DNA from: Curvularia clavata
Lineage: Eukaryota
Direction of reading: 5' to 3'
Assembly (NCBI GenBank): GCA_023920165.1
Contig: CP089279.1
Span: 558,001-622,000 of the forward strand
DNA: 64,000 nt
Shown here: in pieces, positions 9,147-20,950 of the stretch
Layout of the letters: each line of letters begins with the position of its first letter
How positions within the stretch are numbered: the stretch's first letter is position 1
The notes under the pieces: generated by a model
Seen by the model: only the letters and a program-made list of their open reading frames with translations
Told to the model about the DNA's origin: nothing
The model's database searches: none
Made by a program: the position numbers and the translations under genes

Positions 9147-11803
9147 CCTGACGCCCAGGGCACAAAGCTCGCTCTTGTTGACTAGGCTGTTTCAACCCCG
9201 TTGGCCAGTACGGCGTCGTCGTCGTAGTCGTCGTGGTGGTGGTGCTGTCATGGCCGAACGCGCGCCTGGGGCCGGGGATGCGTGAGCACATGTAAGAAGC
9301 ACCAAAAGAAACGACGCAGCCAGCAAAGTAAAAAAGAAAACGCCAGCGAGACAGTCAGTGGCTGCTGTGGTGGTGGCCAAAAGAAAGACGACGCCACCGG
9401 ACATGGGATGACATGGGATGGCATGGCATAGCATGGGAGGTGTGATATCGATAAGCCCTACACAGGTCAAACACAGGCCAACGCCGGCGGCGCTCCTTTT
9501 CTTTTGCTTTTGCGGGGCCGACGAGCGCCAGAACCATGACACACACATTGCACAAGAATAGCAAAGGACCATGCACACACACTCACACGCACCCATCCAC
9601 GTCATGCAAGGACAGCGAACCGTTCATGCAACCCGCACTTGCTTCCCTTTTCTCTCTCGTCGCCCAATCGCCCGCCCGCCTCGTGCCCTCCCCACCCAAG
9701 TGGACCCAGAAAAAAACGCGCGCGTGGACCCATTGGGCCAACGCACTGCTACACCCTCCCACATGCTCCCAAACAAAAAAATACTCCAAACACACGACCG
9801 ACTTGCTAACTGGCGTCGGAAAATTTTTCATCATCCGTCCTGCTCTGGCGCTGCTTGCTCCCAGTTCTGACTCCACACACCCCTGCCACTTTCTAGCGGT
9901 GACAGCCACCCCTCAGCGTCGGCCACGTAGACAGCTGCTTGACCGCACTTCTCGACTCTGCCACTTTGCCCGCCTTGTTACGTCATCAGCGCCCCAGCTA
10001 AAGGCCCTACCCGGCCAAGTAAACGCCAGTCTGGGGTAGACGAGAACCACCGTACCTTGCTCCATCCATCCATCCAACTTGTCTGTCCATGTGCTGTATG
10101 GGTGTGTGACTATTCTAACAGAGCGGTGGGAGGCTGCTTCTTCACCGCCACATTCTGCTCTCTTCCCCTCCTTTTCTGCAAGGGAAATGCCTGACTACAT
10201 GGCATTTGCTGGGGGGGACGTGTTCACTGTTGGGCTTCTGCGAGGGGGGGAGGGCGAAGCAAAAAGAAGGGCAGAGAAACTGAGACTGCGTCGATTAGAG
10301 AGGAATTGACTCTCCTGACATACGTGTGCACGACGTTGGGCTGGTATGGAATCGTGCATCATGGTCGTCGTGTTGTCCTGCAGAGCAACTACCTCGTTGC
10401 AGCAGAAGAGATTCTAGTACCTTCTGTTTAGATTCCCGAAACAGAGGGAGGGGGCGTTTCCCCCAAAGCAAAGACGTTGCAAACACACACAAGGAAAAGA
10501 AAAACTGTAGTTTGAACACTTGCAAATGAAACATGAACAGCATCATACGAGAGTGGCGAACATGTTCTATGTCAATTAAATCTGTAGACCGTTTAACACA
10601 ACAGCCATGGAACAACCGTCTATCTGAGCAAAGAAAGGAAACTAGACCCCGTCATGGTGGTACCACACAAACTCAAAACGCACAATCATTAATCTAGTCC
10701 AACTACCCACCAGCCAACCATCCATCTTGCCGAGACACACGCTGATGCAGATGATTGGAAAAAAGCACACAAAAGCCAAAATAACAAAATAGGGGGGGTG
10801 TGAGTGAGAGAGGGAACAACAAAAGAACCAGCCAAAAACCAAGCGCTAATGCTGTGTTTTCCCGCAAATGCCCAATAAGAAAAGAGACTAGAGAAAACAA
10901 TGCAAGACTGGAAGAGAAAAGAAAAAGGAACAGGTAGGAAGATGAACCGTAGAAAAGCAAAAAGAAAACAGGATATAGTAGACAAAAAACCGTACACACA
11001 CCACCACCCTACCCACGCTAAATGCCAAAATAAACCATCATAAATCTTTGCATAAACGGGTGGTGAAGGGAAAAAAAGAGGGGGGCGGGAGACAGAAGAG
11101 ACAAAAAAGGGATGGAGAAGAAGACATCCATCCCCTCCGATCCATATTCTGTCCCTCCATCCACAACCCCCCTTGAACCCCACCAATGCCTGAGCTGGTC
11201 TTTCCCTGATCTAAAAAGTTCCTTCTTTCTTTCTTCGTATGTATGTGCCGTCATCCGTATGGGCCAGGCGTGAGACCTCATGTTGTGTGGGTAGTAAGGT
11301 AGGTCCGGCTGTCACCCAACCCCCCCACCCATCCACTCTGCACCACGCGACGCCCTTTAACCCTTTCCCAAGCTCCTTGAAAACAAACGTCTTCTCCTTC
11401 TTCTTGCACCCTCCTCCTTCTCCCAAGTCTTATCTTGCGCCAGTGTAATGAATTCCCAGACTCCTCCTTCCATACCCCCACCCCCCAAACCCTACCCTTC
11501 ATTACGGTGCCTGCCCGAATTTGCTACTTTGGTTCTGCGCGAAGCAGCACCAAAACGCCATGTGTATATGTGAACGTCAAGTACAAAAAACAAAACAAAA
11601 CAATCAATCAAATAAAACAAACAAGTCTATCCCAGGTTTTTTGCCAAAACATCTAATGTAAAAGAAATTCGTCTTTTGCGTTAGAGAAACAAAGCGGATG
11701 ATGCTGCTAATCGATGCTGGTGACGTAGATGGTGCCCACCATCTCATTCACTTCTCTCAACTACTCTTTCGTCGTTGTCCTAGTTCTTTCTTTAACTCTT
11801 GTC

Positions 11804-13473
11804 TCATGGGACCGTCGATGCTGGCCGCTCATAAGGTGTGGATGGCTGGGGTGGGGAAGGCATAGTTGATCTGCGGTCTCCGTCTTCGGGATCGCGTTTC
11901 AGGCTCTTGATGCTACCCGCGGCACTGTGCTGTGACATTCTGTCCGGGCTCCTCATATCGTGACTTCGTAGATCCGATGGGTCGGATCTTGGCGGGCCTG
12001 CTGCAGGTGCTGATGCTGACGACGCAGTCTCGTCGTCTTGCTGCCGCCGCCGTTGGTACAGCTCCATGTAGCTAAGCCCTTCGCCCTCTCTCTTCATCGA
12101 CCCCGCCATGTCGGGCACAGGCGCCGTCCTGGCACCGCTGACTAAGTCTTCTTCAGATCGTAGTTGGATCTGTGGGAGCGGCTGGCCTAGTTGCGGAGGC
12201 ACACTCGATCGGGAACGAGTGTCTGCCCGCCGCCTACTAAAAGAGCTGTTTCGCCTGCGCCCAATGCCACCATTACCGCCACCAGCGCTGGAGCCACTGT
12301 CTGTGCGGTGGTGGTAGCCGTGTATGGGGCCTTGAGGCATAGGCGGAGGAGGTGCCTGGTGAAGCTGAGGGGGCATCGGCGGTGGGTTCGGCATCAGCTG
12401 GGCGGCGTTTGCGGGAGTAAAGCCATGTGGTGCAGACGCAGGTATGACAGGCACTTGAGAAGGCGAGCTCATGCCTGTTCCCGTTGCAGATGGGTGGAGC
12501 TGAAACACTGGCGCGTTGGCGCGCGCGCTCATCTCTTGCTCCCCCAGCTGCCAGTGCATCGACTCGGCAGAACGCCAGGGAATACCCATCTCTGTAGCAA
12601 CCTTCTGCCACATTTGGTCCTTGAATCTATTTGCCAGAAAAAATCGTCAGTATTTGTTTTTGTTGCCCTTGTGCTGTCGCACGTCTGTGTGAGACTGGTC
12701 TCGTGCGGCCAGCCCGAGAGTGAACAAACACCAAAATCAATGATTGCAGTCTCGGGCCGTCCAAAAGAAACTCGTGTCTTTCCGCCTTGTAGTACGTACC
12801 GAGCATAGAGTCGCGCAAGCTTATTCTTCTTTTCTTCGTCCCAGATGGCCCGCTTTTCCAGGTAATTTTGGTATCGCAGCCGGCACGAGATGGAGCTTCG
12901 TCCAGGTAGTCGCTTCGCAATGTCGTCCCACTTCATTCCCTGGCCCCGCAGTTCAATGGTCAGGTTGTCCTCCTCGGGGGTCCATTTCGACTGTTTCTTC
13001 GCTGGGCTCTCGTCGGGGAGTGGGGTTTGGGAAGCCTGGCGCTTCAGTGTTGATGGGGGAGAAACATTAGTGCCGGCTGGGCTGTTGTGGATGGGCGCGG
13101 ATCCATGGGGTCCGGAATAGAGTTGTCGAAACTGTGGAAGTGCTGGATCATTACGTCGGTGTAGCTCTGAGATTGCAGGTAGAACAGGACCTCCAAGCAT
13201 TGGTGCAGATCCCTTGGGAGCCGATGTGGGTGCCTGGGGAGGGTAGGCAGCCATGGGAGCATAGTGTTGAGGTGCTGTTGCGTAACCACCGGGAGATCCA
13301 GTAGCATAGGCGGGGGATGCCCTTTGGGCGGGGGATTGTGTGTACGCTGACGGTGCCGTGGTGTATCCTCGTGTGGCTCCTGTTGAGTGAGATGCGTTGG
13401 ACACTGAGCTCTTCTTGCTAGCCGGTGACTCGGAGCCCCGCGCTCGGGGCTCGAGAAGAAGATTGATATCCAG
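11804..13473 (-). CDS. Myb/SANT-domain transcription factor; exons 13473-12800 and 12626-11804; start proposed at CUG 13473 (first in-frame AUG is 13254)
   Basis: Myb repeat KQSKWTPEEDNLTIELRGQGMKWDDIAKRLPGRSSISCRLRYQNYL is followed across intron 12799-12627 (GTACGT..CTGAC..TAG) by WDEEKKNKLARLYAR|FKDQMWQKVATEMGIPWRSAESMHW. The gene is secure; the start codon is inferred. Confidence 0.88.
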
Positions 13474-15861
13474 GGTGAACGAAAAGGACCAGCGTCAAGC
13501 CAGCCCATAAAACAGTAGTCGAGTTCGTTTACGTCTCCAAATTCCACCTAGATTCCAAGATTCCCGACGACGAGTAGGCTCCTGGTAGTTGGCGGCGGTA
13601 AGTAAGGAGATCGAAAGAGCCAAGTCCTAGCGGCGGGGTGTTTAAGCAGATGAGGGCGACGACTATCTGCAGAGATGTGTTTGTGTGTATGTAAGGTGAG
13701 TGACGTTGATGGTAAACAACAACGATGACGAAGGGGGGTGGGCGGGAGATGAACAGGAGAGGACAGGCGTGGGAGAGGGAGTGAGGTTCGGATAGACTAA
13801 ATGTGCCGAAGAGGGAACCAAGTAGCCAGTTGCAAAGTACTTTGGATGATTCACGCTCTGAATGGTCGATCGAAGTCGAGCTATTTGGGAGATGGGTCGG
13901 GGCCCGGGGAGCAGGGGGTGAAACAGGCCAACCACCTGGTCTGATGAAAGATGGTCGTGCTGAGCCACTGACTTTTGCAGGTCGAGCAGGTCGGGGAGGA
14001 TAGCGTTGGAGGGATGGTGGATGCGGTCTGGTAGGAGCAAAGTAGGGTCTGAGGGTCTAAGGTACTTTGTCGAGCGAGCATGGGTGCAAATAGAGAGAGT
14101 TAGCGTACGACTGTAATGCTAATAACAGGCATCCTTGCAAGGCCCTGGCTGGCGCCGCATCATCGTCCGCGGTAGGGATAGGGATTCCGGGGGCTTGGGA
14201 TCAGGATGTACCCTTTGCGTCTGTGACTTGACTGACTACGCTGTGCGCTTGACGCCTTGTCGACTCGTGCTGGCGGCGCGCCACATTAACGACCCACAGA
14301 CCACGACGACACCCAAGCTGATCTGATCTAGGGAAGCATGTCTGCCGGAGATTTTAGCGAGCGCCCAAGAAGAAAAAGGACACACGCTCCACGCTCCCCC
14401 CCTCTTACTCAAATTGCAGCTAGCTAGCAGTTGGCTGCTAGTTGCTAGCCTGACACAAGAAGCACGACACCCGTTCTCGCTGGCAGCGGCGCTAGGATGA
14501 CGTGTCTTGATGGTGTTTCTACGTCTTGCTCTGCCCTTCTCTCGCGCAGCTCCTTTTTTTTGCTCGCCCTGCCCTACTGCTCCGCTGCCCTGATCCCAAG
14601 CTTGAGCCGCCGTTGACGACCAGCCGTCACCGCAGCCCTCCTCCAATCGTGGTGACGGCTTCGTATTTTGGCACGCCCCAGACGGTCGGCGCCGGATGTC
14701 ATTTGCTGCCCTCTTGTTTCGTCAGGCCTCAATGCGCGTGCCCAAGACAGGGCTGGCGGCGAGGGCGGCGAGGGCGACAGCGGCGTTTGCAGAGCAACAA
14801 GAGAGCATCGGCTACAAAGCCACCTCTAGGTCACGATCGTCGACAGCACTGCTGGCCAAGGCAGCGAATCAAGCCCAACACAAGCGGTGAACAGCCTCAG
14901 GGATTCGCGCAGACGGTTCGGGTTCGGAGAGCACAAGCGCCATGACATGGAAGATCTGCAGCATGCTCGCCCTGCTCCGGCTATCTGTGACGCCAGGCGC
15001 GTCGCTACCGAAAGCCTTGCGAACGGCTGACTGACTTCATTGTAGCGGTGCATATTTGGTGATGTGTTCACGCCAAAGGGCTGCCAACGGCCACACTGGC
15101 TCCACGTCCTGCAATATCTGCCTCGACGGCTCCGGTCAAGCCCCCCCACTGTGGGCGCCGGGCGATCCATTGGAAAGCATGCCATGCACAGCACAGAGGA
15201 GCGGTGAACTGCGGTGAACTGCCGGCCACGGGCGTGACGTCTAGCTCGCTCGGATGGGGCCCTGGGGCTCTTCGCCGTCGTTGCCTCTCGGCCTGATCCG
15301 TATTCGATTTGCTGTTGTGCTGGCCTTGTGTTTGCCCGAGAGCCACGTTGTATGCCGTATACATTGACTCCCCCATGATGAGGCGCGGCCCTGCCAGGTC
15401 ATCTCTGCGTGCGCCGCGCTGCCAGGCAACCCGTCAGCGCTGTCTAATTGCATCACTGCTTCGCCGTGGCAAGGGTTCTAATGATGCACATGGAAGCGGT
15501 GAGGACTGCCTGAATCCGTGCATGCGTTGTTCCATGCTACTATTCGAGTGAGGTTGGATAGAGCACGCCCCCTCACCCCCCTCCACGCCCCTCCTCTCGG
15601 TCAGTTAGACGTGCATTAGCCATGAACACTGTCCCCGTGCGTCCGTGAACGCTCGAGTCAATCGAAAGCGAAAAAAGGGCTTTTTATCGGCGATACAGTA
15701 AGGCAACCCGATTCCCCTCCCCCCCAAAGGGCGATACGTGTTCGGCATTGCCATGATGGGGTTTCTCCTTGGAGGTCGCCGTCTGGATCCGCAAATGCCT
15801 TTCTGCGCCGACGTCTGCGTCCATGGTGTCACAGCCTCCACGTCCCTTGGTTTCTGCATAC

Positions 15862-19468: not shown

Positions 19469-20950
19469 CTACAATGGCAAGACCCACTCGCCCTCATTCT
19501 TTGGTTTCGCCAAGCTACTCTGATCCCTCTTGACAAACTGCCCATATCCCTTCTCACCCACCAGCCCCCCATTATCTCTGTCCCAAACCACCTTCCCCCT
19601 CAAAACCGTATATCTTGGCCACTGCGTCAGCCGCCGCCCTTCAAATGGCGTATAATCCACATCATGATGCAGCATATCGTTCGTCAATAGAAACGGCTGC
19701 ATCTTGCCCTCAGGATACCAAACATTAATATCCGCATCCGACACACCTTCCTTCAGCGCCCCCTTTCTCGGATAAAGCCCATACAGCTTCGCCGGATTGG
19801 CCGATGTCAACTCCACGAACTTTGTGAGCTTAAGTCGCTGCTCGCTGAGTACAAGCGCGAGTCTCGTTTCTATGCCCGGACAACCATTGGGAATGTATTT
19901 GAAATGTCCGTTGGGAAACTCAGGCGAGATGCTGGATTTCTTGCCTGTGGCGCTGTCGTCGTAGCGGAAGGGACAGTGGTCAGATGAGAGGATGGTAAAG
20001 GTGCCGTTTTGCAGTCCGGTCCAGATGACGTCGCAGTCTGCCTCTGTCGCGCGTGGTGGCGGCGAACACACGCATTTTGCGCCTTCGAAACCGGGTTGAT
20101 CAAGGGAGCGCGCGGTCAGGAAGAGGTATTGTGGACAGGTTTCCGCGTAGATGGGGAGACCACGGTCCTGCGCTGCTTTGATATGTGCGGTTGCAGCTGG
20201 AGTGGAAACGTGTACGATGAGGATGGGGGCGTCCATGAATTCGGAGAGGCTGATGGCACGGTAGGTAGCTTCTGTTTCGGCCATGGGAGGATGCGAAGAA
20301 CCGTGGTATTTTGGGGCAAAGAGTTTCTGTTTCTCGAGCTGTGCCGTCATCCAGTCAATTACTTGGCCATTTTCGGCGTGGATCATGGTCGTGATGCCTT
20401 GTCTTCGCGCTTCGAGGAGTACGTCGAGGATTTGGCCGTCGTGCAGCTGGAGGGCCTCGTACGTCATGTAGATTTTCAGAGAAGAAATGCCTTCGGAGCG
20501 GAGGGTTTTGAATTCTGAGAGTGCTTTTTCAGAGGGATTGCCAACAAGCAGGTGGAAGGAGTAATCGATGTAGCAATTGTCTTTTGCCCGCTCGTGAGTC
20601 GCTGCTAACGTATCGAGAAGCGTGTCTTCAGTCTTCTTTTGCGGAGCAAACGTGACCATGGTTGTTGTGCCACCGCATACAGCTGATCGACTGCCTGTCT
20701 CGTAGTTGTCTGCTGTTGACCCTTTGCCAAATAATGGAGGCTCTTGGAGATGGACATGGGCATCGACACCTCCAGGCATCACGTATCCGCCCTCGGCATC
20801 TATTGTCTTTGCTGCATTTGTATTCTTAAAGCCCCCTCTTGGAGCCACCTTTGCAATCTTCTCATCCTTGATGGCGATATCCAGCTCTTGAGTATCGGTC
20901 TCGGAAACCACTATTCCATTGATGATGAGCAAATCATATTCGGTCGCCAT
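19469..20950 (-). CDS. Dihydropyrimidinase / D-hydantoinase (amidohydrolase superfamily), intronless
   Basis: MPGGVDAHVH metal motif, SLKIYMTY carboxylated Lys, IHAENG, IVHVS, ETCPQYL, SSDHCPF and NPAKLYGL. Confidence 0.93.
   Translation of the reverse strand: MATEYDLLIINGIVVSETDTQELDIAIKDEKIAKVAPRGGFKNTNAAKTIDAEGGYVMPGGVDAHVHLQEPPLFGKGSTADNYETGSRSAVCGGTTTMVTFAPQKKTEDTLLDTLAATHERAKDNCYIDYSFHLLVGNPSEKALSEFKTLRSEGISSLKIYMTYEALQLHDGQILDVLLEARRQGITTMIHAENGQVIDWMTAQLEKQKLFAPKYHGSSHPPMAETEATYRAISLSEFMDAPILIVHVSTPAATAHIKAAQDRGLPIYAETCPQYLFLTARSLDQPGFEGAKCVCSPPPRATEADCDVIWTGLQNGTFTILSSDHCPFRYDDSATGKKSSISPEFPNGHFKYIPNGCPGIETRLALVLSEQRLKLTKFVELTSANPAKLYGLYPRKGALKEGVSDADINVWYPEGKMQPFLLTNDMLHHDVDYTPFEGRRLTQWPRYTVLRGKVVWDRDNGGLVGEKGYGQFVKRDQSSLAKPKNEGEWVLPL

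Follow-up and report, generated by a model that had tools for sequence, protein, structure and literature searches.

On the minus strand of the 64,000-nucleotide (nt) stretch of Curvularia clavata DNA that we analyzed (the window) lies a gene for a Myb transcription factor with no in-frame AUG at the start of its conserved coding region. The protein very probably initiates at a near-cognate codon, which is CUG here and GUG in most relatives. The transcribed parts of the gene, the proposed start codon and the annotated one are as follows, all on the minus strand:

13474..13995, minus strand: unspliced 5' leader of at least 522 nt (RNA run X9 reaches 13995, X10 reaches 13939 and X1 extends past 14600)
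13495..13497, minus strand: in-frame TGA, eight codons before the CUG, read from the sequence
13465..13479, minus strand: proposed near-cognate start CTG (13473-13471) with its context, A at -3, G at +4 and GATATC at +4..+9
13453..13473, minus strand: N-terminal (M)DINLLL motif, from the alignment and the related loci, spaced like the motifs of EH1 and MATalpha2
13255..13473, minus strand: N-terminal extension of 73 codons without counterpart in the 425-amino-acid (aa) database model, from the ratio of nonsynonymous to synonymous substitution rates (dN/dS) and comparison with database protein P0006
13260..13307, minus strand: out-of-frame ATGs at 13307 (C at -3) and 13262 (A at -3), upstream of the annotated start and in the frame of an upstream open reading frame (uORF)
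13252..13254, minus strand: annotated first in-frame ATG (codon 74, C at -3), possible start of a 425-aa tagless isoform
12859..12987, minus strand: Myb repeat (PF00249 in Pfam), at residues 163-205 of the CUG-initiated protein; the conserved core extends beyond the intron
12627..12799, minus strand: GT-AG intron of 173 nt, its joint seen in all four RNA runs
11804..12626, minus strand: exon 2 through the stop codon

An earlier note on this DNA had proposed the CUG start, and its positions for the TGA, the CTG, the ATG at 13254 and the ATGs at 13307 and 13262 were correct when re-checked on the minus strand. With the intron removed, the CUG-initiated protein is 498 aa long. P0006, a database protein labelled Curvularia clavata, is identical to it at 425 of 425 residues from 13254 onward. 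PF00249 scored 44.3 bits for exon 1 and 52.4 for P0006, against a curated cut-off of 24.4. From the TGA to codon 20 the only in-frame near-cognate codons are the CTG at 13473 and an ATC at codon 3. CTG or GTG in strong context is common, with 617 matches to purine-NN-[CG]TG-G on both strands of the window, so the observation in this single sequence is not beyond chance and the case rests on comparison. The sole other purine-NN-NTGGATATC site in the window, at 20884 on the minus strand, seems to be internal to another coding frame and is probably there by chance.

The RNA evidence consists of assembled contigs from four of 22 listed runs; rare variants are dropped from such contigs, and the true 5' end, start sites and minor isoforms are beyond their reach. 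All four runs carry the joint 12626/12800 and thus represent spliced RNA. In X1 (12800-14600) and X9 (12800-13995), which come from separate studies, one contig each spans the CUG with no further joint, and pieces from X10 reach 13939. Because the X1 and X9 contigs cross the CUG unspliced, neither an upstream AUG exon nor a transcription start site downstream of 13473 is the main form. These were two of the three results that the earlier note had set against a CUG start; neither was found, and the leader reaches at least 13995. The note had also seen no good branch point and acceptor, and we agree: no AG precedes the codon and there is no CTRAY site in 14100-13250. The leader is free of ATG between 14080 and 13509. 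Differences in the X1 and X9 contigs (listed or implied by depth) fall near 13650-13675 and 14395, with none at the CTG. An assembly error at the CTG was excluded, as the RNA contigs match it and the related locus L003 has an identical context. The spliced X1 contig, 5058 nt long, overruns both ends of 11300-14600, reflecting either a longer leader and 3' end or merged neighboring transcripts. A site of the CCATGC/GCATGC type at 14079-14081 lies just past the ends of two RNA contigs. Close relatives have such a site about 610-720 nt ahead of the start (about 620-720 nt in L004, L006, L007 and L008), and it is possibly a promoter element.

The start codon in related loci

We compared the start region with the best 80 of 149 loci confirmed in a metagenome scan. 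Codons were counted in the 74 of these that have a D/E-I-x-x-L-L/I/M motif in the Myb frame, plus the window, giving 75 sequences; of the six omitted, four end in frame before the motif and the others are L021 and L020. At 90% nucleotide identity there were 61 clusters, 53 non-AUG and 8 AUG. Database proteins starting with MDI were left uncounted, since their M may stand for a CTG or GTG codon; DNA loci alone entered the count.

The codon preceding the motif was GTG in 58 sequences, CTG in 9 and ATG in 8 (45, 8 and 8 clusters), and no further Val or Leu codon occurred. Elsewhere in the same exons, GTG makes up 66 of 227 Val codons and CTG 147 of 779 Leu codons. A purine stands at -3 in all 53 non-AUG clusters (A in 50) versus six of eight AUG clusters, and G at +4 in 61 of 61. 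GATATC at +4..+9 is present in 50 of 53 non-AUG versus one of eight AUG clusters (Fisher p 2e-6, with independence overstated since clusters are related), while the AUG clusters retain Asp and Ile through synonymous codons. An upstream in-frame stop without an in-frame ATG was found in 38 of the 53 non-AUG clusters, and three end too early; an in-frame ATG ahead of the Myb repeat occurs in 43. On a quick tree that included database proteins from several Pezizomycotina classes there were at least nine changes among GUG, CUG and AUG, with low support (7 of 74 branches starred). The alignment of related 5' regions suggested in the earlier note therefore shows the codon before DIxxL kept as GTG, CTG or ATG in 75 of 75 sequences. 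The proposal of CUG initiation gains strong comparative support for the gene in the window, but the codon is mostly GUG among relatives. In general, CUG is reported as the most efficient near-cognate codon, followed by GUG (PMC5666671). Three divergent copies, L017, L020 and L021, start at a true ATG and lack an upstream AUG (uAUG). In L021 the ATG-DINLL is one base out of the Myb frame (a frameshift or small intron), and L020, whose translation equals that of L021 over the stretch shown, has a short contig from which the ATG-DINLL site is absent.

The 73-codon extension is under protein-level constraint. Between the window and 12 close loci (codons 2-73, 820 codon pairs), differences at codon positions 1, 2 and 3 numbered 124, 106 and 471, and dN/dS was 0.08. 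The value for codons 2-24 was 0.05 and that for the annotated linker 0.135, making the extension the tighter of the two. The earlier note had reasoned that a lack of coding conservation upstream of 13254 would speak against its proposal; at a dN/dS of about 0.08, the opposite was found. Stops are present in the frame upstream of the CUG in the comparison with relatives, and the Met of 13254 is lost in several close relatives.

Database models treat this region inconsistently. The motif is present in 77 of 120 database proteins listed, preceded by V in 57, M in 11, L in 8 and A in 1. In 66 of the 77 it is placed internally, behind varied leaders that fail to align with one another. P0170 begins with MDINLL, while its Alternaria sister models have their starts farther downstream. 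P0146 is incomplete at the 5' end and reads through the extension, and P0148 and P0149, also partial, are about as long. We read these four proteins as signs of annotators meeting an open frame without an ATG.

The upstream AUG and hairpins around the start

Four further features surround the CUG:

13506..13508, minus strand: conserved uAUG in weak context (T at -3), out of frame, 35 nt before the CUG
13044..13508, minus strand: overlapping uORF of 154 codons from the ATG at 13508; its frame and length vary among relatives
13486..13506, minus strand: leader hairpin of 8 bp with a 5-nt loop, between the uAUG and the CUG, with the TGA in the loop (RNAalifold; z -2.4 in the window)
13429..13455, minus strand: second hairpin, from +19 after the CUG, within the coding region (-19.7 kcal/mol, z -2.4 versus synonymous shuffles)

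The earlier note had listed two out-of-frame ATGs ahead of 13254. Both are present, but the one at 13262 is in strong context (A at -3) and the ATG at 13508 had been overlooked. This uAUG is conserved in position. Among 59 clusters with enough sequence, 45 have an ATG 33-53 nt upstream of the start (41 of 51 non-AUG, 4 of 8 AUG). In the 49 clusters with long flanks, 38 have an ATG in the 30-55 nt bin versus 0-8 in each of twelve other 26-nt bins. The conserved uAUGs have a pyrimidine at -3 in 44 of 45 cases versus 198 of 348 other upstream ATGs, while -2 and -1 are variable. The 45 uAUGs divide among the three frames as 22/13/10; 20 of the reading frames overlap the start out of frame, 19 stop before it and 6 are open in frame. 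Because the frame varies, it is the position and poor context of the uAUG that are conserved and not a peptide. A conserved uORF peptide and a frameshift from the uAUG were ruled out on the same varying frames and lengths, and a Pfam search of the 154-codon uORF product gave no match. In the window the uORF extends past both downstream in-frame ATGs. On these data the uAUG is probably a selected attenuator. An in-frame, open version of the weak uAUG occurs in L030, L034, L044 and L054, and in the AUG-start loci L050 and L066, where it would add 11-14 residues before the motif rather than inhibit. The uORF stop at 13044-13046 lies about 245 nt ahead of the sole intron (12627-12799), so nonsense-mediated decay could act on the mRNA when the uAUG is used.

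Evidence for the leader hairpin is moderate and lineage-dependent, since the segment from -50 to -4 had z < -1 in 28 of 47 non-AUG clusters, compared with 6 and 12 for control windows upstream and 21 for downstream sequence, each out of 47. In the 13 Pleosporales-like loci examined with RNAalifold, its 8 pairs showed solely one-sided changes (G-U/G-C and U-G/U-A), and the broken pairs fell in the two AUG-start loci. The +19 hairpin is clear in Pleosporales-like loci and weak in other lineages (z < -1 in 19 of 53 non-AUG clusters). Non-AUG starts are reported to benefit from a hairpin 14-18 nt downstream (PMC5666671).

Identity of the gene and its N-terminal motif

Cluster look-ups placed FGSG_00318 (294 aa) among the Fusarium homologues, and the Myb core is 71% identical to it over 115 aa. 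The genome of C. clavata itself contains one strong and one distant match to this Myb protein. FGSG_00318 is Fusarium graminearum MYT1, which is required for female fertility (PMC3184970), and a supplementary table of PMC8660761 pairs MYT1 with Pyricularia MoMYB5 (MGG_15357), a protein of 456 aa, the length of database protein P0135. The gene encodes a Pezizomycotina Myb transcription factor, likely orthologous to MYT1 and MoMYB5. Longer models of both have an in-frame VD[IF]xxLL stretch like that of the window protein; in P0339, a longer model of the FGSG_00318 locus, VDFAALL precedes the annotated Met by 57 residues, in frame. Unlike the CUG form proposed here, MYT1 was described with a start at the downstream AUG and a length of 294 aa. 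MYT1 and MoMYB5 do not align with the window protein outside the Myb core and N-terminal motif. The wording 'start codon' has 0 occurrences in the main texts on MYT1 and the MoMYB genes, and the idea that a non-canonical start had been reported for MYT1 or MYT2 was not borne out. Three other candidate orthologues were dropped: MYT2, which is another locus (FGSG_07546, 323 aa); BZcon1, which is intronless with N-terminal Myb repeats; and MoMYB1, which is paired with rca-1.

Published observations on MYT1 bear on its translation. Fusions to green fluorescent protein (GFP) under the native promoter gave no signal in 16 strains, and overexpression left strains without perithecial initials, unlike deletion (PMC3184970). 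The forward primer for overexpression begins at the annotated downstream ATG (PMC3184970 supplement), so these strains made the short form. The GFP and overexpression data are circumstantial, and fit low translation and a distinct short form.

The N-terminal motif resembles known co-repressor motifs. EH1 is FxIxxIL, and the IxIxxLL of MATalpha2 contacts the propeller of Tup1 (PMC4943189). The window protein shares with them the spacing hydrophobic-x-I-x-x-L-L and fits the [VI]xx[IL][LM] motif used in a screen (PMC4943189); this pattern lies outside the DNA-binding domain and is in frame in 74 of the 80 loci. It differs in that position 1 of the motif would be the initiator Met, at the extreme N-terminus, and in that Tup1 binding is putative. 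A Tup1/RCO-1 orthologue is encoded in the same genome at L084:744-2024 (minus strand; G000:C4), 95% identical over the queried exon to P0373, a Pleosporales Tup1; it was located by pattern after a Pfam Tup_N search of the genome gave a single match below the cut-off. A predicted complex of the P0373 WD40 domain (244-592) with P0170 residues 1-32, made without alignments or folded controls, scored 0.03 and was counted neither for nor against Tup1 binding.

Regulated initiation or a limit on dose

The explanation that we think likely on the whole combines a near-cognate start, an attenuating uAUG and two forms of the protein, one long and tagged with the MDIxxLL motif, the other short and tagless. 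Four observations underlie it: the leader is unspliced, no in-frame AUG lies upstream, the extension is under constraint, and the start codon is exchanged only among GUG, CUG and AUG. The weak AUG 35 nt upstream and the small hairpin would remove part of the scanning flux. A minority of the remaining ribosomes would initiate at the CUG. The protein that they make would be scarce, and its initiator Met would complete an MDIxxLL tag that may serve to dock on the propeller of the co-repressor Tup1. Ribosomes that pass the CUG would reach the out-of-frame AUGs, of which 13262 has A at -3, or the downstream in-frame AUG, which would yield the tagless form with the same DNA-binding domain. Such a layout would hold the dose low, and scanning fidelity would set the ratio of long to short form. 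By the logic of leaky scanning, relaxed stringency should raise the use of both the uAUG and the CUG, so that the long form is buffered and the long/short ratio goes up. The simple coupling of output to start-codon stringency proposed in the earlier note may thus be too simple, as the conserved uAUG would work against the CUG.

Parts of this arrangement are known elsewhere. Neurospora cpc-1 has conserved near-cognate codons and a CUG start has been proposed for Podospora idi-4 (PMC5487733); both are likewise filamentous-fungal transcription factors with such codons in good context, but they are bZIP proteins. Translation of cpc-1 involves a main AUG, several near-cognate codons and GCN4-type uORFs, with near-cognate output in vivo less than 1% of that from AUG (PMC5487733). 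In the Myb gene, unlike cpc-1, initiation appears to rely mainly on a single codon, fixed in position, which defines an N-terminal motif. The uAUG resembles that of eIF5 mRNA, which is in conserved poor context and inhibitory at lowered stringency (PMC3326321). The main start of eIF5 is an AUG, whereas in the Myb gene the downstream start is itself near-cognate, so uAUG and CUG would respond in the same direction, unlike in eIF5. Mammalian C/EBP LAP and LIP are long and short factors from one mRNA that share a DNA-binding domain, with initiation setting their ratio (PMC5487733). The C/EBP proteins are unrelated, and their short form lacks activation domains where the Myb short form would lack a putative repression tag. 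A literature search for fungal Myb genes with a non-AUG or near-cognate start found no report, with a 2013 study of start-codon stringency in Neurospora outside its coverage. Near-cognate fungal starts and poor-context uAUGs are thus already known; what we describe is a near-cognate start that we take to be real and deeply conserved, with an added leader module.

Several observations weigh against the two-form explanation. The RNA contigs cannot show initiation at the CUG, which we infer by comparison. An AUG start is found in 8 of 61 clusters and the near-cognate start is therefore not essential, and an open upstream in-frame ATG, mostly in weak context, is present in 12 of 53 non-AUG clusters, so that some lineages could reach the motif from an upstream AUG. 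The uATG is missing in 14 of 59 clusters and variable in frame and length where present. No two-sided compensatory change was found in the leader hairpin among the 13 close loci, and this hairpin is weak in Sordariomycete-like and Eurotiomycete-like loci. The Fusarium stretch VDFAALL has F for I and is known as protein residues alone, and dose alone could explain the phenotype of MYT1 overexpression. Finally, Copley 2016 (PMC4943189) reports that the Tup1 pocket would clash with the Phe of EH1, that this pocket may accept motifs without Phe, and that the motif is weakly enriched in fission yeast. Because of this clash and weak enrichment, we put the chance that the tag is a Tup1-type co-repressor motif at a little under even.

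The main rival to the two-form explanation agrees with it on the near-cognate start and departs on regulation alone: nearly all productive initiation would occur at this start, and it and the weak uAUG would merely hold a dosage-sensitive regulator at a low level, with no switching and no functional short form. We regard this as quite possible, though we lean against it. Switches to AUG recur (four on the quick tree, at least three of them forced) and so regulation through the near-cognate codon is dispensable; in 10 of 53 non-AUG clusters there is no in-frame ATG before the Myb repeat from which a short form could start, and in 20 a strong out-of-frame ATG intervenes, as 13262 does here. That MYT1 was undetectable from its own promoter and harmful when overexpressed also suits a fixed low dose. 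Set against this, many Sordariomycete-like and Leotiomycete-like loci have a downstream in-frame ATG with A at -3 shortly ahead of the Myb repeat, and a uAUG at fixed spacing with a near-cognate start is more elaborate than a low dose needs. Regulated, condition-dependent switching is for its part unlikely. Less likely again is its most specific version, in which scanning fidelity would decide whether a fertility regulator acts as a Tup1-recruiting repressor or as a competitor without the tag, and the initiator Met would itself belong to the co-repressor motif. The module in that version would comprise the weak uAUG, the hairpin and GUG or CUG in an extended GATATC context, at a spacing near ribosome length, across several Pezizomycotina classes.

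Two other rivals dispense with the near-cognate start, and we consider both very improbable. The conserved TGGATATC and the upstream ATG might be a DNA or RNA element, with the protein made from a downstream AUG and little or no translation of the extension. The near invariance of GATATC in non-AUG loci and the pairing of uAUG bases in a stem in Leotiomycete-like loci would fit such an element. It does not account for the codon-position-3 bias of the extension and its dN/dS of 0.05-0.08, for AUG-start relatives that hold D-I-x-x-L-L through synonymous changes, for a start codon whose first base is solely G, C or A with a -3 base matching the initiation consensus, or for the 10 clusters that have no in-frame ATG before the Myb repeat. 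Slightly more remote is a spliced-in upstream AUG exon that would make the Leu or Val codon internal. Many database models are built this way, including the 66 of 77 motif-bearing proteins with an internal motif, but all four runs are without a joint upstream of 12800 and two have single spanning contigs, the codon lacks a preceding AG and the region a CTRAY site, the modelled leaders are mutually unalignable, and GTG in 45 of 45 clusters is not what an internal Val would give.

These results correct the N-terminus of a conserved fungal transcription factor whose database models are truncated or carry unrelated leaders. They suggest that the published MYT1 overexpression and GFP-localization strains made the tagless short form only. 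GATATC is a candidate downstream context that is relaxed once the codon is AUG, and the lineages with GUG, CUG or AUG, with and without the uAUG, provide a natural series for asking whether near-cognate initiation is regulatory or a dose limiter. If the switch reading is true, GATATC would be a selected +4..+9 enhancer of near-cognate initiation, and start-codon stringency would be a developmental input in filamentous fungi.

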